The notes beneath the pieces were generated by a model. The model was not told where the DNA came from and made no database searches. It saw only the letters and a list, made by a program, of their open reading frames with translations. From the IMG/VR virus record IMGVR_UViG_2923323785_000006, positions 1 through 16,386 of that record: DNA of 16,386 bases, one strand, 5' to 3'. Below, piece after piece: positions 1-16,386 of this stretch. The stretch comes from a virus (taxonomy: Duplodnaviria > Heunggongvirae > Uroviricota > Caudoviricetes). Numbering within the stretch: position 1 is the stretch's first letter; each line of letters starts with the position of its first letter. The position numbers were made by a program, and so were the translations under genes.

Positions 1-88
1 TTATCTTCTGGTATTTAGCTATCCCTCATAAGTTAATTGCCGCTGAGATATCCTAAGCTCTAGCCTCTGAAAATACATTTATATTTCG

Positions 89-114
89 AAGCCCGCGATA
101 TTTTAAGCGGGCTT
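89..114 (+). terminator. Hairpin (aagcccgc / gcgggctt, 10-nt loop) followed by TTATTTTA; intrinsic terminator candidate downstream of tfa
   Basis: Seen in sequence: 8-bp GC-rich inverted repeat at 89-96 / 107-114, T-rich tract 115-122 on + strand. On the minus (tfa) strand the flank is A-rich, so function there is less certain. Confidence 0.45.
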
Positions 115-119
115 TTATT

Positions 120-701
120 TTAAACTTCAGGTATTACAGGCCACTCAATATCAGGTGCAGTTGATGTATCAACACGGTTCAGCAACACCCGATACTTTTT
201 CCAGGCTTCCAGCAATGAGGTTTCTTCCTCCGTTGCGATTTCCAGATCTACAGCATCCTGAAGTGGCGCAATATGCTCACTGGCTACCTGCATCAGGCTG
301 TTTTTTGTTTCTTCCGCCTCCCGGATCCGGAACAGTTTTTCTGCTTCTGCATCTTTCACCCAGGCTGTGCCGTTCCACTTCTGAAACTCCCCTTCCGGCG
401 ATAACCAGGTAACATTTTCCGGTAATGATCCGAGTTCAGAAATAAATAACGCGTCGCCGGAAGCCACGTCATAAACCGTTTTACCCCGATGATCTTCAAC
501 GAGATGCCACGATGACTCATCACTGTTGAAAACAGCCACGAAGCCAGCCGGAATATCTGGCGGTGCAATATAGGTACTGTTTGCTGGCAGACCTGTATGA
601 GGCGGAATATATGCGTCACCTTCACCAATAAATTCATTAGTTCCGGCCAGCAGATTATAAATTTTTATGGTCCGTGGTTGTTCACTCATTCTGAATGCCA
701 T
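120..701 (-). CDS. tfa: Tail fibre assembly protein (lambda Tfa-like, 193 aa)
   Basis: Translation [24 protein letters not shown]... is near-identical over its length to lambda Tfa as I recall it. ATG at 701..699 overlaps the stf stop (TAATG). Confidence 0.92.
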
Positions 702-2713
702 TATGCAAGCCTCACAATGTAGTTAAATGCGATGTTTTTGACGGTGTTTTCCGCGTTACCAGCAGCGTTAACGGTGATGGTGTGTCCATGTGAGCCAATC
801 GCAACAGAGTGCGTATGAGCACCAATACCGACAGTATGTGCGTGAGCACCTGCAGATGCGGCTGTGCCGCTGACACTATGAGTGTGCGCTCCTGCAGCAC
901 TTGTATTCACACTGGCCGTAGACACTACCTTATGTACTGACCCATTTTGTGACCACTGGCTGACTGCTGATGCGCCTGTGACACTATGAGTATGGTTTCC
1001 GGCACTTGCGGCTGTACCGCTCACACTGTGCGTATGCGCCCCGGTGTTATTCGTGGATTTAGTGCCGTAATCAAACGACGATGTGGTTTTCGTCCCCAAA
1101 TCCGTACTGGATGCGCTGGCGCTGTGGGTGTGCGATTTAATGCCGTCCTGTTCCTGAGACAATACGGCACGACCACTGGCAGGTTTGCCCTTAATCGTCC
1201 AGCCACGCATATCAGGGATCACGCCTGACGGATAAGCGGCTGCAAGTTTCGGGTATGCAGATTTGTCAAAAGTCTGCCCCTGCATCAGGGCATAACCAGA
1301 CGGAACGGTATCTGATGGCCACGGGATTGGTGCACCGACTGGGTAGCTTTCTGGTGGAAGATTTTTCGAGGTATAAACTTCTGCCCAGTCTTCCTCAAAA
1401 CCATAGCCATCTCTTGAGGAACGGTAGAACAGACCTCCATTTCTGTAATGTGCCTTCATCTGCAAGGTCCGGCAACTTCCGACTCCGGTATAGAAGTTAA
1501 CCAGAATATAGCTGTCGCCAGAGCGGGTGACATTGTAAGCGCCTGATTCGGCATTCCATGGAACGCCCCCATCCGCATCGGCATACGTATCCGTTGCCCT
1601 TCTGGCAAAAGCAGCCACATGCGCGGCGGTTAAAGTAATATCTTTGGAACCATCAAACTCAACACCAGAAACCAGTCTTGGCGTTTGCAGCTTTGTTGCT
1701 GTTAATGCATTACCGTTCAGACTTGCGGACAGTTTGGTTCCAATAACCAGTTCGCCGGTTGCGTTATCAATAGCAAACGGTCTTAATGTATTCCAGCCAC
1801 CATAAACATCACCTTGATTGGTAAGCAGCAGGTAAGTTTTAGCGCCATCATTACGCCATAATGCACCATACTCCCCACCTATCATTCGAATCTGATTACC
1901 ACCACGCGCTACAATTTCGTCTGTGGCAAAAAGTTTTTTGCACGACAAGTTATCGTTAACGATTAACGAATGAGACTCATAAAAACCACGCCCACTCTTA
2001 AAATCAAGGATAACGTCCGCCGCGATACATTCAGTCGCTGGATTTGTTGCCCCAAACTTATAGGTCGTATCATTAACAACGAGATCAGCACCAGGTGCGG
2101 ATATTGACAGGCCATCTTCGATAAACGCAAAAACAGGGAAAGCAGCGCCATCAACATAGAACACAGAGCGCAAATCATCGCCCTTATTACTCATCATTAT
2201 TGAGTGGATGGCTCGTTCATTGTTTTGATATTGCCAGAACATTCCATAAGCATAACGCCCCCTGTCAGTCCAGCCACCAGGCATAACAAATCCGTTAAAC
2301 TCGCAGTTATTCATCGGATCGCCTGCGGTTCGCGTTGCCGTGGTGATAATGACCCTTGATGCCAGTTCGCTTACTGAGCCAGCAGAACGCATAACAACAA
2401 CAGGGTAATATTTTCCAGATGTTGCACCTGCAGGAGCGTTAACCCGCACATAACGCATACCACGCTTATCAGCAAAGTCTGTTTTACTGACCGCGTTAAT
2501 GTTGTTCAGGAAGCGTCCCTTATCGGGTATATCAGCGCCGTTCTGGTCTTTCTGCAGACGTTTCTCAGCATTGTCATTGGCTGCTTTTACTGCCTTTGGC
2601 GTTGCCGCCAGCGTTTCAGACGTGCTGTTGGTCGCACTGCTGAGCTGTACTATCCCCTTTTTCGTCGTGCTCGCATCCTCAAGCGCCACGGCGGATGCAA
2701 TACCGGCGCGACG
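701..2713 (-). pseudogene. stf: 5'-truncated side tail fibre gene (C-terminal ~660 codons of a lambda Stf-like protein; ORF track begins at a GTG at 2689)
   Basis: Translation ...[34 protein letters not shown]... through the His-rich [15 protein letters not shown] repeats and C-terminal ...[29 protein letters not shown] matches the lambda Stf C-terminal part. Homology stops near 2700-2713 where the frame runs into a stop, so the N-terminal ~450 codons are missing. Confidence 0.88.
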
Positions 2714-2772
2714 ATGATGCGGGCCTGTGGAGTTCTGCCGATCTGACTTATGTCATTACCTATGAAATGTGA
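2701..2772 (+). pseudogene. 3' remnant of minor tail protein U gene (last ~23 codons)
   Basis: In-frame translation [23 protein letters not shown] matches the lambda gpU C-terminus as recalled; no upstream continuation. Confidence 0.6.
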
Positions 2773-2778
2773 GGACGA

Positions 2779-3238
2779 TATGCCTGTACCAAATCCAGCA
2801 ATACCGGTGAAAGGTGCCGGAACCACCCTGTGGGTTTATAACGGGAGCGGCGACTCTTATGCGAACCCGCTTTCAGACGTTGACTGGTCGCGTCTGGCTA
2901 AAGTTAAAGACCTGACGCCCGGCGAACTGACCGCTGAGTCCTATGACGACAGTTATCTCGATGATGAAGATGCGGACTGGACCGCGACCGGGCAGGGGCA
3001 GAAATCCGCCGGAGATACCAGCTTCACGCTGGCGTGGATGCCCGGAGAGCAGGGGCAGCAGGCGCTGCTGGCGTGGTTTAATGAAGGTGATACCCGTGCC
3101 TATAAAATCCGCTTCCCACCACAAGCACGCTGCCGCCACCTTTCAGGGCTGAACGCTGCCCCTTTTTACGACGCCTGCGTCGGGACAGGACAATCCGCGC
3201 GTTACCCAGCTTTATTACGGGCAAATCCCCCCGGTTAA
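2779..3238 (+). pseudogene. Major tail protein V, N-terminal fragment (~113 aa of V fused to 40 unrelated codons)
   Basis: [50 protein letters not shown]...AYKIRFP matches the lambda gpV N-terminus; identity ends near nt 3118, after which the ORF continues in unrelated sequence to a stop at 3238. GAGGA Shine-Dalgarno precedes the ATG at 2779. Confidence 0.85.
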
Positions 3239-3295
3239 CCTTGATTCTGGCCTGCGGATTTTTGACCGTGGCCCTTTTCAGCCTGGCCCTTTCCT

Positions 3296-3880
3296 TTACC
3301 AGTTTCCGGCGTACCTTTGTCTCACGGGCAACCTGTGACGCCGACTGCGATATCGCGGATGAAGCAACGCGGTTATCAGTTCATCCAGCGCGGCTGCTTT
3401 GTTCATGGCTTTGATGATATCCCGTTTCAGGAAATCAACATGTCGGTTTTCCAGTTCCGGAAAACGCCGCTGCACCGACAGGGGGATCCCGTCGAGAATA
3501 CTGGCAATTTCACCTGCGATCCGCGACAGCACGAAAGTACAGAATGCGGTTTCCACCACTTCAGCGGAGTCTCTGGCATTTTTCAGCTCCTGTGCGTCGG
3601 CCTGCGCACGCGTAAGTCGATGGCGTTCGTACTCAATAGTCCCTGGCTGGAGATCTGTCTCGCTGGCCTGCCGCAGTTCTTCAACTTCCCGGCGCAGCTT
3701 TTCGTTCTCAATTTCAGCATCCCTTTCGGCATACCATCTTATAACGGCGGCAGAGTCATAAAGCACCTCATTACCCTTGCCACCGCCTCGCAGAACGGGC
3801 ATTCCCTGTTCCTGCCAGTTCTGAATGGTACGGATACTCGCACCGAAAATGTCAGCCAGCTGCTTTTTGTTGACTTCCAT
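3296..3880 (-). CDS. nohD: Terminase small subunit Nu1 homologue with replaced C-terminus (194 aa)
   Basis: MEVNKKQLADIFGASIRTIQNWQEQGMPVLRGGGKGNEVLYDSAAV... is near-identical to lambda Nu1 up to ...AAALDELI (about residue 171), then diverges (ITALLHPRYRSRRHRLPVRQRYAGNW). No gpA large terminase gene follows. Confidence 0.9.
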   Translation of the reverse strand: MEVNKKQLADIFGASIRTIQNWQEQGMPVLRGGGKGNEVLYDSAAVIRWYAERDAEIENEKLRREVEELRQASETDLQPGTIEYERHRLTRAQADAQELKNARDSAEVVETAFCTFVLSRIAGEIASILDGIPLSVQRRFPELENRHVDFLKRDIIKAMNKAAALDELITALLHPRYRSRRHRLPVRQRYAGNW

Positions 3881-4057
3881 TGTTCATCCCACGGCCAAAA
3901 ACAGAGAAAGGAAACGACAGAGGCCCAAAAGCTCGTTTTCAGCACCTGTCGTTTCCTTTCTTTTCAGGGGGTATTTTAAATAAAAACATTAAGTTACGAC
4001 GAAGAAGAACGGAAATACCTTAAACCGGAAAATTTTCATAAATAGCGAAAACCCGCG
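3881..4057 (-). promoter_or_regulatory. cosB region (Nu1-binding R sites and IHF site between cosN and the Nu1 start)
   Basis: Reverse complement reproduces the lambda left-end leader. R-site-like repeats seen at about 3906-3921, 3946-3961 and 3999-4014 (cgtttcc(t/g)ttct motifs and their complements). Confidence 0.75.
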
Positions 4058-4069
4058 AGGTCGCCGCCC
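4058..4069 (-). promoter_or_regulatory. cosN cohesive-end sequence (GGGCGGCGACCT on minus strand)
   Basis: Plus strand aggtcgccgccc is the exact reverse complement of the 12-nt lambda cohesive end, flanked by lambda-like left-end and right-end sequence. Confidence 0.85.
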
Positions 4070-4268
4070 CGTAACCTGTCGGATCGCCGGAAAGGACCCA
4101 CAAAATGATAATAATTATCATCTACATGTCACAACGTGCATCTACGCCATCAAACCACGTCAAATAATCAATTATGACGCAGGTATCGTATTAATTGATC
4201 TGCATCAACTTAACGTAAAAACAACTTCAGACAATACAAATCAGCGACACTGAATACGGGGCAACCTC

Positions 4269-4463
4269 ATGTCAACTAAGAACAGAACCCGCAGAACAAC
4301 AACCCGCAACATCCGCTTTCCTAACCAAATGATTGAACAAATTAACATCGCTCTTGAGCAAAAAGGGTCCGGGAATTTCTCAGCCTGGGTCATTGAAGCC
4401 TGCCGTCGGAGGCTAACGTCAGAAAAGAGAGCATATACATCAATTAAAAGTGATGAAGAATGA
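4269..4463 (+). CDS. ylcI: Small basic protein (64 aa), lambda right-end / DLP12 ylcI-like; possible ribbon-helix-helix fold
   Basis: ATG at 4269, MSTKNRTRRTTTRNIRFPNQMIEQINIALEQKGSGNFSAWVIEACRRRL...; position between cos and ybcW matches the DLP12 order as I recall it. Symbol assigned by position and length, not verified. Confidence 0.6.
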   Translation: MSTKNRTRRTTTRNIRFPNQMIEQINIALEQKGSGNFSAWVIEACRRRLTSEKRAYTSIKSDEE

Positions 4464-4627
4464 ACATCCCGCGTTCTTCCCTCCGAACAGGACGATATTG
4501 TAAATTCACTTAATTACGAGGGCATTGCAGTAATTGAGTTGCAGTTTTACCACTTTCCTGACAGTGACAGACTGCGTGTTGGCTCTGTCACAGGTTAAGT
4601 AGTTTGAATGATTAGCAGTTATGGTGA

Positions 4628-4834
4628 TCAGTCAACCACCAGGGAATAATCCTTCATATTATTATCGTGCTTCACCAACGCTGCCTCAATTGCCCTGAAT
4701 GCTTCCAGAGACACCTTATGTTCTATACATGCAATTACAACATCAGGGTAACTCATAGAAATGGTGCTATTAAGCATATTTTTTACACGAATCAGATCCA
4801 CGGAGGGATCATCAGCAGATTGTTCTTTATTCAT
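4628..4834 (-). CDS. ybcW: Small prophage protein YbcW-like (68 aa)
   Basis: ATG at 4834 with GGAG 9 nt upstream; translation [40 protein letters not shown]... matches my recollection of DLP12 YbcW. Confidence 0.7.
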
Positions 4835-5119
4835 TTTGTCGCTCCATGCGCTTGCTCTTCATCTAGCGGTTAAAATATTACTTCAAATCTTTCTGTATGA
4901 AGGTTTGAGCACGTTGGCCTTACATACATCTGTCGGTTGTATTTCCCTCCAGAATGCCAGCAGGACCGCACTTTGTTACGCAACCAATACTATTAATTGA
5001 AAACATTCCTAATATTTGACATAAATCATCAACAAAACACAAAGAGGTCAGACCAGATTGAAGCGATAAAAACGATAATGCAAACTACGCGCCCTCGTAT
5101 CACATGGAAGGTTTTACCA

Positions 5120-5530
5120 ATGGCTCAGGTTGCCATTTTTAAAGAAATATTCGATCAAGTGCGAAAAGATTTAAACTGTGAATTGTTTTATTCTGAACTA
5201 AAACGTCACAATGTCTCACATTATATTTACTATCTAGCCACAGATAATATTCACATTGTGTTAGAAAACGATAACACCGTGTTAATAAAAGGACTTAAAA
5301 AGGTTGTAAATGTTAAATTCTCAAGAAATACGCATCTTATAGAAACGTCCTATGATAGGTTGAAATCAAGAGAAATCACATTTCAGCAATACAGGGAAAA
5401 TCTTGCTAAAGCAGGAGTTTTCCGATGGATTACAAATATCCACGAACATAAAAGATATTACTATACCTTTGATAATTCATTACTATTTACTGAGAGCATT
5501 CAGAACACTACACAAATCTTTCCACGCTAA
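5120..5530 (+). CDS. ybcV: DUF1398-family protein YbcV-like (136 aa)
   Basis: ORF track starts at a TTG (4997); the internal ATG at 5120 has a GGAAGG Shine-Dalgarno 8 nt upstream and gives 136 aa ([43 protein letters not shown]...), the length I recall for YbcV. Confidence 0.75.
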
Positions 5531-5820
5531 ATCATAACGTCCGGTTTCTTCCGTGTCAGCACCGGGGTGTTGGCATAATACAATGCATGTACGCGCTAAA
5601 CCCTGTGTGCATCGTTTTTAATTATTCCCGGACACTCCCGCAGAGAAGTTCCCCGTCAGGGCTGTGGACATAGTTAATCCGGGAATACAATGACGATTCA
5701 TCGCACCTGGCATACATTAATAAATATTAACAATATGAAATTTCAACTCATTGTTTAGGGTTTGTTTAATTTTCTACACATACGATTCTGCGAACTTCAA
5801 AAAGCATCGGGAATAACACC

Positions 5821-6114
5821 ATGAAAAAAATGCTACTCGCTACTGCGCTGGCCCTGCTTATTACAGGATGTGCTCAACAGACATTTACTGTTCAAAACAA
5901 ACAGACAGCAGTAGCACCAAAGGAAACCATCACCCATCATTTCTTCGTTTCTGGAATTGGGCAGAAGAAAACTGTCGATGCAGCTAAAATTTGTGGCGGC
6001 GCAGAAAATGTTGTTAAAACAGAAACCCAGCAAACATTCGTAAATGGATTGCTCGGTTTTATTACTTTAGGCATTTATACTCCGCTGGAAGCGCGTGTGT
6101 ATTGCTCAAAATAA
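5821..6114 (+). CDS. borD: Bor outer-membrane lipoprotein (serum-resistance protein, 97 aa)
   Basis: MKKMLLATALALLITGCAQQ... has a lipoprotein signal peptide with lipobox LITGC; near-identical to lambda Bor; opposite strand to the lysis genes as in lambda. Confidence 0.93.
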   Translation: MKKMLLATALALLITGCAQQTFTVQNKQTAVAPKETITHHFFVSGIGQKKTVDAAKICGGAENVVKTETQQTFVNGLLGFITLGIYTPLEARVYCSK

Positions 6115-6145
6115 TTGCATGAGTTGCCCATCGATATGGTCAGCT

Positions 6146-6607
6146 CTATCTGCACTGCTCATTAATATACTTCTGGGTTCCTTCCAGTTGTTTTTGCATA
6201 GTGATCAGCCTCTCTCTGAGGGTGAAATAATCCCGTTCAGCGGTGTCTGCCAGTCGGGGGGAGGCTGCATTATCCACGCCGGAGGCCGTGGTGGCTTCAC
6301 GCACTGACTGACAGACTGCTTTGATGTGCAACCGACGACGACCAGCGGCAACATCATCACGCAGAGCATCATTTTCAGCTTTCGCATCAGCTAACTCCTT
6401 CGTGTATTTTGCATCGAGCGCAGCAACATCACGCTGACGCATCTGCATGTCAGTAATTGCCGCGTTCGCTAGCTTCAGTTCTCTGGCATTTTTGTCGCGC
6501 TGGACTTTGTAGGCGATTGCGTTATCACGGTAATGATTGACCGCCCATGACAGGCTGACGATGATGCAGATAATCAGAGCGGATATAATCGCGGTTACTC
6601 TGCTCAC
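6146..6607 (-). CDS. rzpD: Rz i-spanin (153 aa, GTG start)
   Basis: (M)[59 protein letters not shown]... is near-identical to lambda Rz. GTG at 6607..6605 overlaps the R stop (GTGA); GGGGG Shine-Dalgarno 7 nt upstream. Confidence 0.9.
6205..6387 (-). CDS. rzoD: Rz1 o-spanin lipoprotein embedded in the +1 frame of Rz (60 aa)
   Basis: [60 protein letters not shown]: lipobox VVGC and proline-rich region, matches lambda Rz1 as recalled; lies entirely inside Rz. Confidence 0.88.
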
Positions 6608-7101
6608 TGTTGCCCCCACAAACAGACTTCACGCTCAATCTCACGACGAGTCATCAGGCCTTTCCATTGCTTACCGCCAGCGTATGTCCAGCGACGCAGC
6701 TGATCACATGCGCCTTTGATATCGCCCTGGTTTATTTTGCGAAGAAGCGTCGATGTTCTAAAATTGCCAGCACCCACGTTGTAAACGAATGAGTAAAGAG
6801 CGCCGCGCGTTGTTTCCGGTATATCGACTTTGATATACGGGTTAATTTGTCTGGCGACAGTGGCAAGGTCTTTATTCAAGAGTGCTTTGCATTCTGCTTT
6901 GGTATACGTTTTACCGAGCATGATGTCTTTTCCGGTGTGTCCGTGACATACAGTCCATACACCAACAATATCTTTGTATGGTATGTAGCTGACACCTTCC
7001 AGACCATCGTTACCACTTGGGCCAGTGATTAACACTGATGCTATAGCAATTGCTCCGCCACCAATAGCAGCAGCAACGGCTTTTCGTAATGATGGAGGCA
7101 T
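6604..7101 (-). CDS. rrrD: SAR endolysin (P21 R-type lysozyme, 165 aa)
   Basis: N-terminal signal-anchor-release segment ([20 protein letters not shown]) followed by a T4-lysozyme-like catalytic region; ATG at 7101 overlaps the holin stop (TAATG). Confidence 0.9.
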
Positions 7102-7316
7102 TATTCACCTCTCGCGGCCTTGCGCTTATCTTCTTTAATCTTGAAATAAAGGTTTGTCAGGTACGTCAGCAGGCCAAATACCAGGCTACCCAGCACACCT
7201 ATTGCTGCCCACTGTGAGGGAGTGACTTTATCGAGCAGCTGTAAAAACCAGTAACCGGCACTACCTGCTGAGGTGCCATAGGCGACTCCAGTTGTTAACT
7301 TATCCATGAATTTCAT
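7101..7316 (-). CDS. essD: Pinholin (S21-type, 71 aa, dual-start motif MKFM)
   Basis: [71 protein letters not shown]: two transmembrane segments, Lys before the second Met (holin/antiholin dual start); GAGGTGGGG Shine-Dalgarno upstream of 7316. The ORF-track extension to 7361 is rejected. Confidence 0.88.
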
Positions 7317-7361
7317 AACCCCACCTCGCAGACAAAGCGGGTGTAAATTGAGGGAATACAA

Positions 7362-7904
7362 CGTATCGCAAAAAAGCAGAAACGTAACTGACTCCGAGTC
7401 AGTGAATAACTCAGGTATTGAGTTATCAGCTAATATCGAGACTCAAAAAATGGAAAAACCAGCGCGACGGCGGGTTTAAGCTGTGTGACGAAGTAACCAC
7501 TCTTAACAGCATAACCAATTTTTTACGTACGTAAACCACTGAATGATATTTATGAGAATGCTACCGAGTGTTCAAAACATCACCACAAATACATAAGAAA
7601 ACTTCAACAAATAACCAATAAATAATTTCCAGTGTTATTTTTAGCTGGTTTAAATTAAACAGACGAATTATAGAACCACCATAAATAACAGCCATTAATA
7701 TAAATTAGCTAATAGATTTATTTTTGTTCAAATAAGAGCCATAAATAGGTTTCGATAGAAAAAGTTCAGATAAAAATAGAGATCTACTTCACAAATTAAA
7801 TGAGAAACTAAAACTTACATCTTGAAATAATCACATTGATTAGATGAATATTTATCGCGCAGTGACATCATTTTTTAATAATAGTTCAAAAAAAAGGGCT
7901 CACG
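7362..7904 (+). promoter_or_regulatory. AT-rich ~540-bp non-coding region upstream of nmpC (porin promoter / regulatory region, possible H-NS target)
   Basis: Seen in sequence: long A/T runs (7560-7900) and no credible ORF; lies between the divergent holin and porin starts. Confidence 0.4.
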
Positions 7905-9002
7905 ATGAAAAAATTAACAGTGGCAATTTCTGCTGTAGCTGCATCAGTACTGATGGCGATGTCTGCTCAGGCAGCTGAAATTTATAATAAAGACAGTAAC
8001 AAGCTGGATCTGTACGGGAAAGTTAATGCCAAGCACTACTTTTCCTCTAACGATGCAGATGATGGTGATACTACTTATGTTCGTCTGGGCTTCAAAGGCG
8101 AAACCCAAATCAACGATCAGCTGACTGGTTTCGGTCAGTGGGAATATGAATTCAAAGGCAACCGCGCTGAATCTCAAGGTTCCTCCAAAGACAAAACCCG
8201 TCTTGCATTTGCAGGCCTGAAATTCGGTGACTACGGCTCAATCGATTACGGCCGTAACTACGGTGTAGCATACGACATCGGTGCGTGGACTGACGTTCTG
8301 CCAGAATTCGGTGGCGATACCTGGACCCAAACAGATGTGTTCATGACTGGTCGCACCACTGGTGTTGCAACCTATCGTAACAACGACTTCTTTGGTCTGG
8401 TTGATGGTCTGAACTTTGCTGCTCAGTACCAAGGCAAAAACGATCGTAGCGATTTCGATAACTACACCGAAGGTAACGGTGATGGCTTCGGTTTCTCTGC
8501 TACCTATGAATACGAAGGATTCGGTATCGGTGCAACTTATGCGAAATCTGATCGTACCGACACTCAAGTTAATGCAGGGAAAGTTCTTCCTGAAGTATTT
8601 GCTTCCGGTAAAAATGCAGAAGTTTGGGCCGCAGGTCTGAAATATGACGCTAACAACATTTACCTGGCCACTACCTATTCTGAAACCCAGAATATGACTG
8701 TATTTGCTGATCACTTCGTTGCTAATAAAGCTCAAAACTTCGAAGCTGTTGCACAATATCAGTTCGATTTCGGTCTGCGTCCGTCCGTTGCTTACCTGCA
8801 ATCTAAAGGTAAGGATCTTGGAGTATGGGGCGATCAGGACTTAGTCAAATATGTTGATGTAGGTGCAACCTATTACTTCAACAAAAATATGTCTACTTTC
8901 GTTGATTACAAAATCAACCTGCTTGACAAAAATGACTTCACTAAAGCACTCGGTGTAAGCACTGATGACATCGTTGCTGTAGGTCTGGTTTACCAGTTCT
9001 AA
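7905..9002 (+). CDS. nmpC: General outer-membrane porin NmpC (OmpC/OmpF/PhoE family), intact, 365 aa
   Basis: Signal peptide [23 protein letters not shown], then [17 protein letters not shown]... and C-terminal ...VAVGLVYQF (terminal Phe, beta-barrel signature); classic enterobacterial porin motifs throughout. Confidence 0.93.
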
Positions 9003-9018
9003 TCTGATTACGAAAAAG

Positions 9019-9053
9019 ATATGTTGCGGGAGGCGTTGCCTCCCCAACATATA
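9019..9053 (-). terminator. Long hairpin (about 15 bp with one bulge) followed on the minus strand by CTTTTTCG; candidate tR'-like terminator of the late leader
   Basis: Seen in sequence: atatgttgcgggaggc / gcctccccaacatat inverted repeat; U-tract on the minus strand only; sits about 140-170 nt downstream of the Q stop. Confidence 0.5.
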
Positions 9054-9140
9054 AGTGGCTCCCTCAAGCCACTTCCTTTAGGAGCACAACCTTGCTTCTA
9101 ACTATATAAACCTTCTGTTATATATTACCCTTTATTTTTG

Positions 9141-9165
9141 GGGGCGTTGCAACGCCCCATTTTTA
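9141..9165 (+). terminator. Intrinsic terminator (ggggcg-ttgcaa-cgcccc followed by ATTTTTA), probable nmpC terminator
   Basis: Seen in sequence: perfect 6-bp GC stem, 6-nt loop, T-tract on + strand. Confidence 0.65.
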
Positions 9166-9191
9166 ATAACTTTCAGTAAACAATTGGCATA

Positions 9192-9575
9192 TTAATTAGA
9201 GTTATTAACAACGATATCCATCTCTAACCGGATATCTAATGCCATTAACATCCCTTCAATTATGCCCTCAGCCTTCTGTAACCTTTTCCCGATATAACCA
9301 TCAGAGCAGCAATGCTTACCTGCCAGTGACATGAATGTCATACCGACTACATAATAATCTACTAATAAATCGTGCAAATCGCTGTTGTTCTTTTTCAGAC
9401 GGGCCATGCACCCGCAAATGATCATCGCGTCATCGTCACAACATTGCGGGCGAGATTTTACTTTTGAAGGAATTAATCCCTTAAAACCGGCGGCAATGGA
9501 CGACCAGGTCACATCTTCATGATTATTAGCCGCCCACGCTCCCCAACGTTCAAGAACCATCTGAATATCACGCAT
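9192..9575 (-). CDS. quuD: Late-gene antiterminator Q (127 aa)
   Basis: [62 protein letters not shown]... matches my recollection of DLP12 QuuD; ATG at 9575 with GGAGAAAG Shine-Dalgarno; position directly upstream of the lysis cassette. Confidence 0.85.
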
Positions 9576-9592
9576 TAACTTTCTCCACAAAA

Positions 9593-10588
9593 TCAGGCCA
9601 GCACACCAATCGCCAGTGCGCGATCGATAAAACGAAATATCAGCTCCAGCTGGGAGCCATACTTCTCTTCAAATGCCACGGTATCCGCATGCAGTTCGTC
9701 GTGGTGTTTTCTGCACAAAGGCAGCACAAAAAGGTCATGCGCTTTTGTACCCATTCCACCCTGACCATGGCCTATCAGATGATGCGGATCATCAGCTGGC
9801 TTTCCACAACATGCACACGGCTGCGTCTTAACCCAGCGCGTGTACTGTTCATTAACCCAGCGACGACGTTTGGGGCGTAACATAAAAGACTCCGGCGACT
9901 CCGGATCCACTTTCAGCGCCAGCACCTTTTTCGCTTTATCCTGGATAATGCTGGTGGCAGGAACCGAAGGCACAAGGTCACTTTCCCGGGTGACAGACGG
10001 CAAAACAGACTTCGGTAATCTCAGTGCCTTACGGGCTGCGCTTTCCGGTAAGGCATCCGCCAGGTCATTACGAACCAGCCACCAGCACAGTTCCGGCATT
10101 GTCACGGCATGGTTATCATTAAAATCGAGATCCCGACGGACTACAGACAACACCCAATGGGCACAGTTATCCGTTGCCATTGATTCCAGCCGCTCCGTGA
10201 ACTGATCACGTAACTGATTATCGCAGTGCCAGCACAGACGGATTGCGCCCGGCGCGTGTCGCATTGTGGTCATGTTCTCGCTGTGCCAGTCGGAATGAGG
10301 CCACTGGCAGCCTTTTTCACGAAGTAACCAGCTTTCAAGACATTCCACCCCACCAGCACGACGAATCACTGCCTCATTACGGAACACGGCCCGAACGGCA
10401 GGATCATCCGCCAGCGGTTGTGATGCCGCGGGAACGGCACCACTGGCGAAAGATGAATAATGCTCCGGCTCAGGCTCCAGCAGTACACGCCCCTGCATAA
10501 ACAGGGGCATCAGCTCTGAACCGGGCCTGAACAATACGATCCCCATACGCGGGGCAATTTCAGGGGTCAGTAGTGCTCTCACGGTCAC
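9593..10588 (-). CDS. DUF968-like (YdfU-like) protein with C-terminal HNH-like metal-binding motif (about 329-331 aa; start GTG at 10588 or 10582)
   Basis: C-terminal ...[46 protein letters not shown]... has CxxC, His-His and C..HH..H spacing typical of HNH nucleases; additional CWHC motif mid-protein. Sits immediately upstream of Q, like ydfU-quuQ in the Qin prophage (from memory). Confidence 0.7.
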
Positions 10589-10589
10589 C

Positions 10590-11387
10590 TCAATGAACGG
10601 TATCGAGCAGCTTTAACAGCTCAGGGAATCGGGATTCGAAGAAATGCGGCTGCGTCTCGCGCGGATTTGCGGGACTGGTGATGTTCTTGCCGAACATGCA
10701 GCCTTTCGCTGTCAGCGACCAGAATTTTTTGATGTTGTTAATAGCGGTACGGCTGTATCGTTCGCGCTGCTCGACGATCCCCAGCTTCACCATCTGGTGA
10801 TATGCCTGATTAGCTGTCAGGCGGATACCATACTGCTTCAGCAGTGCACTCAGTGACAGCGTGGGACGGCTTGAGCCATCAGGCGCGTCAGCAGGAGCAT
10901 CAATGGCATAGCGCGGTGCCAGATTCGGTAAGCCAACAGCCTCCTGGAGTTTCTGACAGGCACCAAGCACTGAAGAGTTAGACAGGTTTAACTCCCGGCG
11001 CATAAAGTCCAGCAGAATCACGCCAGCCTGCATCTTGTCAGCAGCCTGCCCGGATAATTTTTCCGATGCGCTGGTTACCATATCGAAAGTACGGATCACC
11101 TTCAGATGGAATGACGGGCTGATCCACATTGCATAGGCATACACCAGTTCTTTGCAGACATACGTCCCCTGGTTATTTCCGCCACGAATAACGTTAACTG
11201 GCTCTATATTGACCGAGTTGCAAATCTGCAACTCGCTTATTAAACGTTCAGTTTGCTCATTGCGGAGCCAGAATGCAGGCTTATGCTTATCCAGAGAACC
11301 GGCAGCCCTGTGCAGATCGTTCAGGCTGTAACGCCCATAAGCATCACGACGAACTTCAATACCATCAATGACCATCAGATTATTCAT
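10590..11387 (-). CDS. KilA-N domain protein with ANT/KilAC-like C-terminal half (antirepressor-like, 265 aa)
   Basis: N-terminus MNNLMVIDGIEVRRDAYGRYSLNDLHRAAGSLDKHKPAFWLRNEQTERLISEL... resembles the KilA-N fold family; ATG at 11387 with AGAGGAGAAA Shine-Dalgarno. The ORF-track GTG extension to 11420 is rejected. Confidence 0.72.
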   Translation of the reverse strand: MNNLMVIDGIEVRRDAYGRYSLNDLHRAAGSLDKHKPAFWLRNEQTERLISELQICNSVNIEPVNVIRGGNNQGTYVCKELVYAYAMWISPSFHLKVIRTFDMVTSASEKLSGQAADKMQAGVILLDFMRRELNLSNSSVLGACQKLQEAVGLPNLAPRYAIDAPADAPDGSSRPTLSLSALLKQYGIRLTANQAYHQMVKLGIVEQRERYSRTAINNIKKFWSLTAKGCMFGKNITSPANPRETQPHFFESRFPELLKLLDTVH

Positions 11388-11406
11388 ACTTCGTTTCTCC
11401 TCTTGA

Positions 11407-11796
11407 TCAGGCGGCTGCACCCGCCGTTTTCTCGTACTTACTGATAGTGATCTCGACCTTCCCTTCCGGGATAACCGGTCCCCACTCCACCAGCATTCTT
11501 TTCACCTGGCTGTCGTCTTCCCACACACCCGCGTGGGTCAGGGCGTCAAACAGCGCCTTGTTATAGTTGTCCAGATCGCGGATCCGGTTATCCGGAGGAA
11601 ACAACACGATCTCCACTGAAGCAGGTGCCGACGTTGGTTTCGGCAGACGACGTAACTGCTCAACTATTGCTGTGCACGCCGCACTCTGGAATTTTCGCCC
11701 CGCCGCGCTTATCAGGCTCTTACCAGCAAATGCCCCTTTGTTGGGGTGTCGCCAGTAGGTGTTCACGCTGGGTGGAAAAGGCAGAATCAGCTTCAT
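11407..11796 (-). CDS. rusA: RusA-family Holliday junction resolvase (129 aa)
   Basis: MKLILPFPPSVNTYWRH... and RDLDNYNKALFDALTHAGVWEDDSQV match RusA catalytic-region motifs. ATG at 11796 overlaps the stop of the upstream gene (ATGA); GAGGGGG Shine-Dalgarno. Confidence 0.85.
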   Translation of the reverse strand: MKLILPFPPSVNTYWRHPNKGAFAGKSLISAAGRKFQSAACTAIVEQLRRLPKPTSAPASVEIVLFPPDNRIRDLDNYNKALFDALTHAGVWEDDSQVKRMLVEWGPVIPEGKVEITISKYEKTAGAAA

Positions 11797-12119
11797 ACTT
11801 TCAGCCCCCTCTCATGTAACCAGTGGGCTGCACGCAGCCTGGCGTTTTCCTCACCAGCAAGCAGTGCGCGGATAATCCCGGCCACCTCGCTGTCGTCGTC
11901 CTTCACCGCGGTATGAAGCGTGATGCCCCGGGCCACGCCACGCTTTATCGTGATGACGCCTTTTTTCTCCAGTGCGCGAAGATGCTCCACCGCTGCATTC
12001 ACTGAACGGTATCCCAGCATGGTAGCCACCTCCTGATTGGTTGGCGGGAAGCCACGTTCTTTCTGGTAAGAAATCAGCATATCCAGCACCTGCTGCTGGC
12101 ATTGAGTTAACGTCGTCAT
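11793..12119 (-). CDS. LexA N-terminal DNA-binding-domain-only protein (about 108 aa; no S24 peptidase domain)
   Basis: MTTLTQCQQQVLDMLISYQKERGFPPTNQEVATMLGYRSVNAAVEHLRALEKKGVITIKRGVARGITL aligns position-by-position with the LexA winged-helix domain (recalled from memory); the protein ends about 40 aa later. ATG at 12119 overlaps the upstream stop (TAATG); GGGGG Shine-Dalgarno. Confidence 0.8.
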   Translation of the reverse strand: MTTLTQCQQQVLDMLISYQKERGFPPTNQEVATMLGYRSVNAAVEHLRALEKKGVITIKRGVARGITLHTAVKDDDSEVAGIIRALLAGEENARLRAAHWLHERGLKV

Positions 12120-12370
12120 TAAGCCCCCACGTAATTCCCTGACAGATACCACTCTTCACCCGATACAGCGCGCTTGCTGCTTTTCCGTAAACACCGCTCA
12201 CGACGCGCAAGAAAATTGTTTCGCTCTTGCTGGGAGTGGCTTTCACGGAATGCCGCCATCCACACCGTTGCAGCACGACGGTATAAGCCCCTGGACTCCA
12301 GTTCTTCCGCCTGGCGGGTCAGGCACAAAATCACCCGGGGATCGTTAGTGCCGACATAGAAATTGTGCAC
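12119..12370 (-). CDS. Small PerC/Pch-like putative transcriptional activator (83 aa, GTG start)
   Basis: Motif AEELESRGLYRRAATVWMAAF resembles the LE..G.WRRAA..W core I recall for the PerC family; family assignment is from memory and the start codon is GTG without a strong Shine-Dalgarno. Confidence 0.5.
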   Translation of the reverse strand: MHNFYVGTNDPRVILCLTRQAEELESRGLYRRAATVWMAAFRESHSQQERNNFLARRERCLRKSSKRAVSGEEWYLSGNYVGA

Positions 12371-12406
12371 AGGTCTGGATTCACGAACTGGTTGCGGTTC
12401 CGGCTC

Positions 12407-12607
12407 CTACGGTATCTCAGTCAGCCGCGGGAAATGTCTGCGTGTATCCCCTTCACAACGGTGAGCCACACGCCCACTCTGACGTAACTTGCTTGCTGAC
12501 TGCAGAACGCGCTGTCGTGAGTAACCTGCAAAAGCATCAGCAATGTCTCCGGAAGTACACCCCGGATGGGCTTCAATGAATTTCTGAACGTCATTCAAAA
12601 GACTCAT
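12407..12607 (-). CDS. Small hypothetical protein (66 aa), possible winged-helix DNA-binding fold; first gene of the minus-strand operon
   Basis: ATG at 12607 with GGGGGTGA Shine-Dalgarno 6 nt upstream; MSLLNDVQKFIEAHPGCTSGDIADAFAGYSRQRVLQSASKLRQSGRV... The ORF-track extension to 12730 is rejected (Arg/Gln-rich, no ribosome-binding site). Confidence 0.45.
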   Translation of the reverse strand: MSLLNDVQKFIEAHPGCTSGDIADAFAGYSRQRVLQSASKLRQSGRVAHRCEGDTRRHFPRLTEIP

Positions 12608-12849
12608 GATCACCCCCTGAATCCTGCCGGGATCTGGCTGTAGTCCACGTTGTCGTAACTGGCTTTGAAGTACGGGTCTTCGCGTTTTTCGGTGTACGTG
12701 CTGACTATTCTGCAGGAAGACTATGGACAATTACTGACTCTTGCCGGTGAACCTGACGGAAAACTACGCGCAGCAGGTCATTAATATCGTTCTTAATAAA
12801 CTGATTATTTATCTCATCACTGAATATCTTTATATAGTGAGGACTTATT
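12608..12849. promoter_or_regulatory. Divergent intergenic region between the minus-strand (nin/Q/late) and plus-strand (yfdQ...int) operons; presumed promoters, no repressor gene
   Basis: No ORF with repressor features on either strand; AGTGAGGA Shine-Dalgarno for the first plus-strand gene at 12836-12843; promoter hexamers not confidently assignable by eye. Confidence 0.4.
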
Positions 12850-13674
12850 ATGTCTCAGAACTTAGACGCAACCGCAATTAATCAAATCCATGCCCTTATT
12901 TCTGCTCAGGGTGTTAATGAAATTATCAGTAAGATTTGTGCCGATGCTGTGGCATTGCCTGAGAATTTCCGCATTCATGATCTGGAAAAATTTAATTTAA
13001 ATCGCTTCCGTTTCCGTGGTGCGCTTTCCACTGCCAGCATCGATGACTTTACCCGTTATTCTAAAGATCTTGCAGATGAAGGCACCCGCTGCTTTATCGA
13101 TGCCGATAATATGCAAGCCGTCAGTGTGCTTAACCTGGGTACTATTGATGAACCAGGTCACGCAGATAACACCGCCACTCTCAAACTGAAAAAGACAGCA
13201 CCGTTCTCTGCCCTGTTGTCTGTTAACGGCGAGCGTAACTCCCAGAAGTCACTGGCAGAATGGATTGAAGACTGGGCCGACTACCTTGTGGGCTTTGATG
13301 CTAATGGTGACGCCATTCAGGCAACCAAAGCGGCTGCGGCGATCCGTAAAATCACAATTGAAGCGAACCAGACCGCTGATTTTGAAGATAATGACTTCAG
13401 CGGCAAACGCTCCCTGATGGAGTCTGTCGAAGCGAAGACCAAAGACATTATGCCAGGGGCATTTGAATTTAAATGCGTTCCGTTTGAAGGTCTGAAAGAA
13501 CGTCCATTTAAATTACGCCTCAGCATTATCACTGGCGATCGTCCTGTACTGGTTCTGCGCATTATTCAGCTGGAAGCGGTGCAGGAAGAAATGGCTAACG
13601 AATTTCGTGATCTGCTTGTTGAGAAATTCAAAGACAGCAAAGTAGAAACCTTTATTGGTACTTTCACCGCCTGA
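12850..13674 (+). CDS. yfdQ: YfdQ-like protein (DUF2303-type, 274 aa)
   Basis: [21 protein letters not shown]...; length and sequence match my recollection of CPS-53 YfdQ; first gene of a four-gene cluster. Confidence 0.75.
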
Positions 13675-13686
13675 TTTCATTACTGC

Positions 13687-13710
13687 AAATGCCCCTGCGG
13701 GGGCATTTAT
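13687..13710 (+). terminator. Hairpin (tgcccc-tgcg-ggggca) followed by TTTAT; candidate attenuator or terminator between the first two cluster genes
   Basis: Seen in sequence: aaatgcccctgcgggggcattt near-perfect inverted repeat directly after the yfdQ-like stop. Confidence 0.5.
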
Positions 13711-13801
13711 GGAAACGTAATTAACTCAATAATCACCGGATGGTGAGGGCTTCCTTTTACCAGAATTCAGCGCGGTGCAGTGCATACACGTGGAGAACAA
13801 A

Positions 13802-14338
13802 ATGTCATTTATTAAAACTTTTTCCGGGAAGCATTTTTATTATGACAAGATAAATAAAGACGACATCGATATTAACGATATCGCGGTTTCCCTTTCAAAT
13901 ATCTGTCGCTTTGCCGGTCATCTTTCGCACTTCTACAGCGTCGCCCAACATGCGGTTCTTTGCAGCCAGCTGGTGCCGCAGGAATTTGCTTTTGAAGCGT
14001 TAATGCATGATGCAACAGAAGCGTATTGCCAGGACATTCCCGCACCACTGAAACGCCTTCTTCCTGACTATAAACGGATGGAAGAAAAAATAGACGCCGT
14101 AATCCGTGAGAAATACGGGTTACCCCCAGTTATGAGTACACCCGTGAAATATGCCGATCTCATCATGCTGGCAACCGAACGCCGCGATCTCGGGCTTGAT
14201 GATGGCTCTTTCTGGCCTGTACTGGAAGGCATCCCGGCAACAGAGATGTTCAACGTGATTCCACTGGCACCGGGTCATGCCTACGGGATGTTTATGGAAC
14301 GTTTTAACGATTTATCGGAGTTACGCAAATGCGCATGA
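13802..14338 (+). CDS. yfdR: HD-domain phosphohydrolase, YfdR-like 5'-deoxynucleotidase (178 aa)
   Basis: ATG at 13802 with GGAGAA Shine-Dalgarno; HD-domain metal-binding signature ...FAGHLSHFYSVAQHAVL...MHDATEAY...; length equals K-12 YfdR as recalled. The ORF-track GTG start at 13775 is rejected. Confidence 0.85.
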   Translation: MSFIKTFSGKHFYYDKINKDDIDINDIAVSLSNICRFAGHLSHFYSVAQHAVLCSQLVPQEFAFEALMHDATEAYCQDIPAPLKRLLPDYKRMEEKIDAVIREKYGLPPVMSTPVKYADLIMLATERRDLGLDDGSFWPVLEGIPATEMFNVIPLAPGHAYGMFMERFNDLSELRKCA

Positions 14339-14691
14339 ATGTTTTCGAAATGGAAGGGTTTCTTCGCGGGAAATGTGTACCGCGAGATCTGAAAGTGAAC
14401 GAAACAAATGCTGAGTACCTGGTACGTAAATTCGACGCGCTTGAAGCTAAATGTGCGGCACTGGAAAACAAAATAATACCAGTGTCAGCTGAACTGCCAC
14501 CAGCAAATGAAAGTGTTCTGTTATTTGATGCTAATGGAGAAGGCTGGCTGATTGGCTGGCGTTCTCTCTGGTACACCTGGGGACAAAAAGAAACCGGAGA
14601 ATGGCAGTGGACATTTCAGGTCGGGGACCTTGAAAACGTCAATATCACTCACTGGGCAGTAATGCCAAAAGCACCGGAGGCTGGAGCATAA
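14329..14691 (+). CDS. yfdS: YfdS-like protein (120 aa)
   Basis: MRMNVFEMEGFLRGKCVPRDLKVNETNAEYLV...; overlaps the upstream stop by 10 nt, and its stop overlaps the next start (TAATG). Confidence 0.7.
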   Translation: MRMNVFEMEGFLRGKCVPRDLKVNETNAEYLVRKFDALEAKCAALENKIIPVSAELPPANESVLLFDANGEGWLIGWRSLWYTWGQKETGEWQWTFQVGDLENVNITHWAVMPKAPEAGA

Positions 14692-14996
14692 TGACCACAT
14701 TTACCAATAAAGAACTGATTAAAGAAATCAAAGAACGAATCAGCAGCCTAGAGGTTCGAGACGATATTGAGCGCCGTGCTTATGAAATCGCACTCGTATC
14801 TCTGGAAGTAGAGCCAGATGAACGCGAAGCCTATGAATTATTCATGGAAAAGCGTTTCGGTGACTTAGTAGATCGTCGGAGAGCAAAAAACGGCGATAAC
14901 GAATACATGGCATGGGATATGACTCTCGGTTGGATCGTCTGGCAGCAACGAGCTGGTATCCATTTTTCAACAATGACACAGCAAGAGGTGAAATAA
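14691..14996 (+). CDS. yfdT: YfdT-like protein (101 aa)
   Basis: MTTFTNKELIKEIKERISSLEVRDD...; start and stop both share bases with the neighbouring genes (TAATG junctions). Confidence 0.7.
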   Translation: MTTFTNKELIKEIKERISSLEVRDDIERRAYEIALVSLEVEPDEREAYELFMEKRFGDLVDRRRAKNGDNEYMAWDMTLGWIVWQQRAGIHFSTMTQQEVK

Positions 14997-15367
14997 TGGA
15001 GCCATACAGCCTCACACTCGATGAGGCCTGTCAGTTTCTTAAGATATCCAGACCAACCGCCACCAACTGGATACGAACAGGCCGCCTACAGGCAACACGT
15101 AAAGATCCAACCAAGCCAAAATCTCCTTACCTCACAACACGGCAAGCTTGCATTGCGGCGCTTCAGTCTCCGCTGCATACTGTCCAGGTGAGCGCGGGTG
15201 ATGGCATAACAGAGGAAAGAAAATGTCACTCTTCCGCAGAAATGAAATATGGTATGCCTCGTATTCGCTCCCGGGCGGGAAACGAATTAAGGAATCTCTT
15301 GGCACAAAGGACAAGCGGCAAGCTCAGGAGTTGCACGACAAGCGAAAAGCAGAACTCTGGCGAGTAG
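14996..15367 (+). CDS. Excisionase-like HTH protein (AlpA/Xis family); 3' end uncertain, reading frame overlaps int by 145 nt
   Basis: ATG at 14996 with GAGGTGA Shine-Dalgarno; [32 protein letters not shown] resembles excisionase-type HTH domains; position immediately upstream of int. The tail beyond about residue 65 may be a frameshift artefact. Confidence 0.55.
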
Positions 15368-16386
15368 AAAAGCTAGGGGATTTACCTGATGTCACTTTTG
15401 AAGAGGCCTGCCTAAGATGGCTTGAGGAAAAAGCTGATAAAAAATCTCTCGATTCAGATAAAAGCCGGATTGAGTTTTGGCTTGAACATTTTGAGGGTAT
15501 AAGGCTTAAAGATATCTCGGAGGCAAAGATTTACTCTGCTGTAAGCAGAATGCATAACAGAAAGACGAAAGAAATATGGAAACAGAAAGTTCAGGCCGCC
15601 ATCAGGAAAGGTAAAGAACCGCCTGTTTATGAACCAAAGCCAGTATCAACTCAGACAAAGGCAAAGCATCTTGCCATGATAAAGGCCATTCTCCGTGCTG
15701 CAGAACGCGACTGGAAGTGGCTGGAAAAAGCGCCTGTCATCAAGATACCAGCGGTCAGAAACAAGCGAGTCAGATGGCTGGAAAAGGAGGAAGCAAAACG
15801 CCTTATTGATGAGTGCCCCGAACCACTGAAATCTGTCGTCAAGTTTGCGCTGGCAACTGGTCTGAGAAAGTCGAACATCATAAATCTGGAATGGCAACAA
15901 ATCGACATGCAGCGACGAGTTGCCTGGGTGAATCCAGAAGAGAGCAAATCAAACCGCGCCATTGGTGTGGCGCTGAACGATACCGCCTGTAAAGTGTTGC
16001 GTGATCAAATAGGCAAGCATCACAAATGGGTGTTTGTACATACCAAGGCGGCTAAGCGAGCAGATGGAACATCAACGCCTGCGGTCAGGAAGATGCGCAT
16101 CGACAGCAAGACATCATGGCTATCAGCTTGTCGTCGTGCAGGAATTGAAGATTTCCGTTTCCATGACCTCAGACACACCTGGGCAAGCTGGCTGATCCAG
16201 TCAGGCGTCCCATTATCTGTGCTTCAGGAAATGGGCGGATGGGAGTCCATAGAAATGGTTCGTAGGTATGCTCACCTTGCGCCTAATCATTTGACAGAGC
16301 ATGCAAGGAAAATAGACGACATTTTTGGTGATAATGTCCCAAATATGTCCCACTGTGGAATTATGGAGGATATAAAGAAGGCGTAA
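15223..16386 (+). CDS. intD: Tyrosine site-specific integrase (P21/DLP12 IntD-type, 387 aa)
   Basis: [50 protein letters not shown]...; C-terminal catalytic motifs ...[39 protein letters not shown] (R..H-x-x-R...Y). GAGGAAAG Shine-Dalgarno; the stop codon is the last 3 nt of the window. Confidence 0.93.

Follow-up and report, generated by a model that had tools for sequence, protein, structure and literature searches.

The window analysed here is a stretch of 16,386 nucleotides from a tailed phage of the Caudoviricetes (IMG/VR record IMGVR_UViG_2923323785_000006, positions 1 to 16,386), and the subject of this study is a short LexA-like gene on its minus strand. The coding sequence (11796..12119, minus strand) encodes a protein of 108 amino acids (WP_000210176.1). 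Its reading frame starts with ATG at 12119, has its final sense codon at 11796 and ends with TGA at 11795-11793, which gives a gene of 327 bp including the stop. The stop codon overlaps the start of rusA by 4 nt in the motif ATGA (11793..11796, minus strand), and the ATG shares 1 nt with the TAA of the upstream PerC-like gene in the motif TAATG. Both overlaps had been claimed in a preliminary description of this DNA, and both were borne out when read from the sequence. In E. coli O27:H7 B4103-1 the same protein was named "LexA family transcriptional regulator" by PGAP.

The first 69 codons (11913..12119, minus strand) encode a winged helix-turn-helix of the LexA type. The Pfam profile LexA_DNA_bind (PF01726) was matched over its whole length, with residues 1-65 on model positions 1-65 of 65 (E 2.9e-19), which confirmed the proposal of a LexA N-terminal winged helix in a protein of about 108 amino acids. 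BLASTP aligned residues 1-68 with E. coli LexA without gaps (35 of 68 identical, 51%, E 2e-21), and the sequence matches in the PDB were all LexA. The three-dimensional structure was modelled as a single chain by AlphaFold2 on 21 relatives, with a mean predicted local distance difference test (pLDDT) score of 84. The model showed the winged-helix layout, with helices at residues 6-22, 28-35, and 40-52 and wing strands at 56-58 and 66-68. Foldseek placed its first 68 residues on the LexA N-terminal domain (NTD) of the DNA complex 3JSO with a root-mean-square deviation (rmsd) of 0.8 Å. The known structures in the PDB were aligned through the LexA NTD alone.

The protease half of LexA is absent. 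Peptidase_S24 (PF00717) had no match in the protein or anywhere in the window, and the protein stops at residue 108, as the preliminary description had it. The score against the LexA equivalog TIGR00498 was 67.4 bits, below the cut-off of 110.95. The LexA C-terminal domain was also sought by tblastn in the six frames of the window, and the best match had an E value of 5.7. A frameshifted lexA gene was therefore excluded.

The winged helix is followed by an acidic linker, TAVKDDDSE, the start of which occupies codons 70-74 (11898..11912, minus strand; pLDDT below 50 at residues 71-73). The remaining codons, 75-108 (11796..11897, minus strand), encode a family-specific tail that AlphaFold2 folded into a two-helix hairpin (helices 75-88 and 93-103). 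In an exhaustive profile search the tail (C-terminal 35 residues) was kept in relatives at 41-52% identity, with the shared pattern hydrophobic-x-x-LL-x-x-hydrophobic-hydrophobic ... AR-x-RA-x-x-(F/W)L. A profile of the tail found no homologue in the PDB and returned spurious helical-repeat matches alone. The earlier claim that an Ala-Gly cleavage site is missing held only in part. An Ala-Gly dipeptide does exist in the tail at A88-G89 (LLAGEE), but it is unconserved, being replaced by A-N in Citrobacter variants and by E-P-G in the sister branch described below. The possibility that the tail is left over from the region of LexA that is cleaved (LexA residues 67-110) was rejected because the similarity was not significant, 36% of shuffled sequences scoring equally high.

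PHROG 362, a family from the nin region of lambdoid phages, was matched by the entire protein (residues 1-108 against profile positions 1-106 of 106, E 7e-58), which corresponds to orf42 of Shigella phage SfV. PHROG 362 and SfV orf42 are the same in kind as the window gene, and their annotation "transcriptional repressor" is based on homology. The gene is also carried by SfII, SfIV, mEp460, cdtI, 2H10, and many Stx2a- and Stx2c-converting phages. It was found in 2233 of 5426 complete E. coli genomes (41%), with up to 4 copies each, and the window's coding sequence was 100% identical to copies on 9 viral contigs. Among 57 distinct alleles, the ratio of nonsynonymous to synonymous polymorphism (pN/pS) was 0.06 for the whole gene, 0.015 for the NTD, and 0.13 for the tail. 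The gene is under strong purifying selection. It is thus a genuine and selected stand-alone LexA DNA-binding domain without a protease.

The gene and its annotation were already known; added here are the conservation of the tail, the absence of Glu44 throughout the family, and the sister branch linked to SOS boxes and dinI. The preliminary description knew of no characterised role for such a protein, and no study characterising SfV orf42 or its family was found in the literature. The "LexA family" proteins of PMC8044961 were considered as members and rejected, as they are cI-type repressors. A search of BFVD returned other short stand-alone LexA domains, which are common among predicted viral proteins. 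The PADLOC defence-system models gave a marginal winged-helix match alone. Proteins of 140-350 amino acids with two tandem LexA DNA-binding domains were also seen (P0129, P0130, P0146, P0150-P0153, and others). By joining two domains into a covalent dimer, such proteins may make up for the missing dimerisation domain of LexA.

Downstream in the window lie rusA, which encodes a Holliday-junction resolvase (11407..11796, minus strand; PF05866, E 7.4e-15), and, in the same operon, a KilA-N domain gene (10590..11387, minus strand) and a DUF968/HNH-like gene (9593..10582, minus strand). The Q-type antiterminator gene quuD (9192..9575, minus strand) ends the module. Distant relatives and all 90-odd loci of the E. 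coli type shared one gene order: replication gene, PerC gene, optional methylase gene, LexA-like gene, RusA, KilA-N or Rha/ANT, DUF968, and Q. Nearly all of the contexts examined had RusA directly downstream, and the two genes usually overlapped at their stop and start codons; the synteny with RusA, DUF968, and Q extended down to 41% identity. The survey of homologues thus placed the gene between the replication or methylase genes and RusA-DUF968-Q.

The methylase slot is filled by different families, either Dam (PF05869) or a PF00145 enzyme together with a D12-class enzyme. A dam cassette of 654 bp (L001, the SfV locus, 6808-7461) lies between the PerC and LexA-like genes at roughly every second E. 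coli locus. The cassette has the same ATGA at both edges and acts as a clean start-codon-to-start-codon module. These identical edges account for the TAATG junction in the window. In Salmonella phage ST64B the module is the same except that Dam is followed immediately by RusA and the LexA-like gene is absent. The LexA-like gene is therefore an accessory of the operon and not a structural part of it.

A sister branch of the family, with proteins of 130-135 amino acids in the same PHROG 362, occupies the same slot in Klebsiella-type prophages. In this branch the transcription unit starts afresh. A terminator is followed by a -35/-10 promoter, the -10 of which is overlapped by a perfect SOS box, for example TACTGTTTATTTATACAGTA. 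Behind the promoter stand dinI, an open reading frame (ORF) of 75-96 amino acids, the LexA-like gene, an ORF of 67 amino acids, RusA (at some loci), DUF968, and Q. One variant has a RecA_C-only gene of 95 amino acids replacing dinI, and another is without such a first gene. A perfect CTGT-N8-ACAG was present within 1.3 kb upstream in 67 of the 71 sister-branch loci with enough upstream sequence, and none of the 71 loci had a box within 2.5 kb downstream of the gene. When the promoter regions were aligned, the SOS box alone was conserved. Among 79 window-type loci, no gene had an SOS box within 1.3 kb upstream.

Two loci of the sister branch carry further genes of note. At L096 (4907-5262) the first gene behind two overlapping SOS boxes encodes the 95-amino-acid protein consisting of the RecA C-terminal domain only (PF21096, E 9e-10), which may be a RecA modulator. 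At L089 (4863-6232) an RNAse_A_bac toxin gene on the opposite strand and a gene with a faint match to a CdiI_2-like immunity protein are inserted just upstream of the SOS-box promoter.

The sister-branch unit resembles the operon of the Gifsy prophages. In Gifsy, a LexA-repressed operon of dinI, an antirepressor gene, and irsA triggers prophage induction, and the role of irsA was called elusive (PMC3121763). Both arrangements run from a terminator and an SOS-box promoter through dinI, a small ORF, a gene X, an ORF of 66-67 amino acids, and a junction resolvase gene to Q. The slot of gene X holds the LexA-like gene in the sister branch and irsA in Gifsy-2. The order in Gifsy-2 is dinI, antirepressor gene, irsA, 66-amino-acid gene, NinG resolvase gene (in place of RusA), and Q. 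The 66-amino-acid gene of Gifsy-2 and the 67-amino-acid gene of the sister branch are homologous, with 37% identity. The irsA gene (STM1020; L179, Gifsy-2, 11768-12370) belongs to DUF1367 and matched PHROG 319, "NinB/Orf recombination mediator", with E 5e-76. However, irsA is unrelated in sequence to the LexA-like gene, and the small ORF of the sister branch is unrelated to GftA. The window-type branch differs from the Gifsy operon in having no SOS box or dinI upstream and in being read from the main early operon.

The recognition helix VNAAVEHLRALEK is encoded by codons 40-52 (11964..12002, minus strand). According to the part of PMC13416735 that cites Knegtel 1995, the LexA residues contacting the CTGT half-site are S39, N41, A42, E44, and E45. 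The window protein has S, N, A, V, and E at these positions, so that four of the five contacts are kept and Glu44 is replaced by Val. No family member had Glu at position 44, where V, A, L, F, T, or Y stood instead; position 45 was Glu, or Leu in the commonest sister types. Positions 43-45 read AVE, AAE, VLL, VAL, ATD, or AFE across the family. The backbone and wing residues T27, S39, N41, R64, and G65 are conserved in the family. For LexA positions 38-47, E. coli LexA has RSPNAAEEHL and the window type has RSVNAAVEHL, which is the nearest to LexA in the family; SSPNAAAEHL, SSPNAVALHL, and SSSNAVLLHL occur in the sister branch. E. coli LexA (TIGR00498; PDB 1LEA, 3JSO) and the window protein are thus alike in the NTD, four of the five base contacts, and the wing. 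The window protein differs from LexA in lacking the S24 protease-dimerisation domain with Ser119 and Lys156, in lacking a conserved cleavage site, in the exchange at Glu44, and in being phage-borne.

The SOS boxes of the sister branch are canonical while its own recognition helices drift. Host LexA binding needs the canonical form of these boxes. The pattern of sequences argues that the family does not read the SOS box as LexA does. In addition, the 8-bp spacing between half-sites is not assured, because the dimer-forming element differs from that of LexA.

Possible operators were searched for in the window and across the family. With up to one mismatch allowed in CTGT-N8-ACAG, 5 boxes were found in the window against 5.65 expected, and none was perfect. 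In the window-type loci, SOS boxes were located inside the cI gene or beside a methylase gene downstream of Q. The box in cI was rejected as the site of the LexA-like protein, since two phages without the LexA-like gene, ST64B and a Klebsiella phage, have it as well.

Both of these boxes are observations in their own right. The perfect box in cI is found in one family of cI repressors, inside the part of the coding sequence that specifies the linker between the helix-turn-helix and S24 domains (L020 5546-5565; L008 836-855; L180, ST64B, 7468-7487; L181, Klebsiella phage 1 LV-2017, 7461-7480). Its CTGT and ACAG cores were kept across DNA identities of 69-99%, and the residues encoded by the spacer change (VCK vs VFI). 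An internal promoter or a roadblock are possibilities for its function. The other perfect box has the sequence TACTGTAAAAATAAACAGTG or a close variant of it and is situated at the 5' end of orf48, a DNA-methyltransferase gene located downstream of Q (L001, SfV, 2886-2905). Boxes of this type were present in about 25 IMG/VR loci, 3.9-6.5 kb downstream of the LexA-like gene, which suggests that the orf48 methyltransferase gene is under host-LexA control.

The only characterised phage stand-alone LexA domain found as an analogue was gp6 of GIL01/Bam35, a Bacillus thuringiensis tectivirus. It is a truncated LexA homologue of 66 amino acids whose binding site has evolved to GaCACAnnTGTGaC and which activates P3, a late promoter that host LexA represses together with gp7 (PMC6182141). 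The two proteins are alike in being phage-encoded stand-alone LexA winged helices without a protease, insensitive to RecA, and produced early. Both also coexist with host-LexA control of the same phage. They differ in that gp6 has no tail, whereas the window protein carries the conserved helical hairpin of 35 residues, and in that gp6 activates a late promoter, whereas lambdoid late genes depend on Q. BLASTP gave no alignment between gp6 and the LexA-like protein. With no detectable similarity, and with gp6 derived from a Bacillus LexA and the present family from a gammaproteobacterial LexA, the two are considered independent captures.

The best explanation is a RecA-insensitive, sequence-specific dimeric regulator with an operator related to the SOS box yet distinct from it, acting in lytic development. 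We hold it tentatively, at slightly less than an even chance. The LexA-like protein would bind DNA as a dimer, and the tail would give the dimer contact that the protease domain gives in LexA, because winged-helix regulators need dimers for palindromes. By analogy with GIL01 gp6, the operator may be a palindrome akin to CTGT-N8-ACAG and not identical with it. The window-type protein would normally be made from the delayed-early rightward transcript, and the sister-branch protein would be made instead from the host-LexA-controlled dinI promoter. With either source, the protein would be active in lytic development and not in the lysogen.

Several results weigh against this explanation. Among E. 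coli phages with differing immunity regions the NTD hardly varies, which suits a constant target (the host or a linked module) better than a mosaic phage operator. The recognition helix of the window protein differs from that of LexA at only 2 of 10 positions (P40V and E44V), so that binding of SOS boxes is conceivable for this branch. The search for an operator was also negative. Nothing outstanding was found among the inverted repeats of the module (9000-12900). All 4-mer half-sites with spacers of 6-10 were enumerated in 84 loci of the window type and 80 of the sister type; with A/T-rich half-sites set aside, the ordinary SOS box alone stood out from other spacings in both sets, and no candidate operator was obtained. 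As for the dimer, tail-mediated contact is pure inference, and the hydrophobic moment of the two tail helices was no different from that of shuffled sequences.

The preliminary description had proposed instead an uncleavable LexA mimic. Such a protein would bind host SOS boxes, could not be removed by activated RecA (RecA*), and would re-repress SOS genes during lytic growth. Its targets would include LexA-gated antirepressors of rival prophages, colicins, and the phage's own dinI-type promoters. The identity of the NTD to E. coli LexA, the retained S39, N41, A42, E45, and wing, and a window helix that is the closest of the family to LexA are in its favour. The near-invariant NTD across mosaic phages is also as expected of a constant host target. 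The co-transcription of the sister branch with dinI or the RecA_C-only gene behind SOS boxes adds a theme of SOS modulation, in which negative feedback is possible.

The mimic was nevertheless weakened by the present results. Glu44 is lost in all members, and Glu45 is lost too in the commonest sister types, which are those behind canonical boxes. The dimerisation element is unlike that of LexA. The window has no excess of SOS boxes, the window-type genes have none nearby, and the gp6 precedent diverged in specificity to a palindrome of its own. A role as SOS super-repressor in lysogens is contradicted by the presence of the gene in 41% of the complete genomes. SOS proficiency is common among E. 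coli strains, which would limit any silencing of SOS to lytic growth. We regard the mimic as unlikely. Stated for the window type, the corresponding mechanism is an SOS-box-binding, tail-mediated dimer that resists RecA*, is made early in lytic growth, and re-closes the host SOS regulon; to this version we likewise attach a low probability.

The gene may also be silent at this particular locus. E. coli O27:H7 B4103-1 has at argU/intD, the DLP12 site, a prophage remnant with which the window region shared 100% identity. Decay of this remnant is severe: it has lost cI, cro, its early promoters, and its replication genes, and the head and tail genes are fragmentary. At the DLP12/argU site of the window, the complete immunity and replication region that an SfV-like prophage would carry is gone. 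A deletion scar (12610..12849) marks the loss, where a 3' replication-gene remnant abuts a fragment next to the divergent yfdQ. The upstream gene of the yfdN/PerC family (12119..12613, minus strand; PF06069, E 2.3e-10; a homologue of SfV orf40) is a pseudogene. Its in-frame TAG at 12409-12407 leaves halves of 66 and 83 codons, and PGAP flags the internal stop.

The earlier view of an integral, co-translated operon member rather than a decayed fragment was therefore upheld in one part and reduced in the other. The full-length PHROG 362 match, the pN/pS values, the conservation of the tail, and the synteny with RusA speak for a true operon member. For the window the argument from translational coupling is weak, since the gene has only a pseudogene ahead of it and the early promoter region has been lost.

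The LexA-like gene is intact, but it may be unexpressed in the window because the prophage has lost its early promoter. According to this explanation, the gene is a silent passenger that is intact only because decay was recent, is not transcribed, and has no effect for this host, which is compatible with any function at the family level. Besides the losses described above, no sigma-70-like promoter was found in 11300-13000 by a crude consensus scan, so that weak or read-through transcription would still be compatible with this result. The identity of the coding sequence to copies on 9 viral contigs and the intact state of rusA, the KilA-N gene, the DUF968 gene, quuD, and the lysis genes count against silence. 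We consider a silent passenger rather improbable.

A recombination or DNA-processing accessory, whose winged helix would bind DNA or a protein partner and act together with RusA, replacing NinB/Orf in nin regions where RusA stands for NinG/Rap, is the least probable of the explanations and seems very doubtful, since the position upstream of RusA nearly everywhere and the Gifsy-2 counterpart of the slot (irsA, then the 66-amino-acid homologue, then NinG) are offset by codon overlaps that are the rule across the operon and make the rusA coupling unspecific, by the direct passage from Dam to RusA in ST64B, by the lack of similarity to Orf or irsA, and by a fold and conserved DNA-reading residues that point to sequence-specific binding of duplex DNA. 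The rusA genes of the DLP12 and phage 82 type presumably also stand without a LexA-like gene.

About two-fifths of complete E. coli genomes contain a member of the family, as do Shigella phages that convert serotype and phages that convert to Stx2. The family is a second independent case, after GIL01 gp6, of phage capture of the DNA-reading half of the SOS repressor alone. Its sister branch is wired into host-LexA-controlled dinI operons, the kind that triggers prophage induction in Salmonella. If the protein did bind SOS boxes, about 40% of E. coli strains would carry a phage-encoded SOS off-switch. Such a switch would silence LexA-gated antirepressors of co-resident prophages of the Gifsy, 186, or N15 type, as well as colicins and SOS-induced defences, and the sister branch together with DinI would form a negative-feedback pulse generator. 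The operator would tell whether the SOS response is subject to feedback from lambdoid phages or whether these phages simply reused a handy DNA-binding fold, with a bearing on the induction of Shiga-toxin phages, competition between prophages, and antibiotic-triggered lysis.

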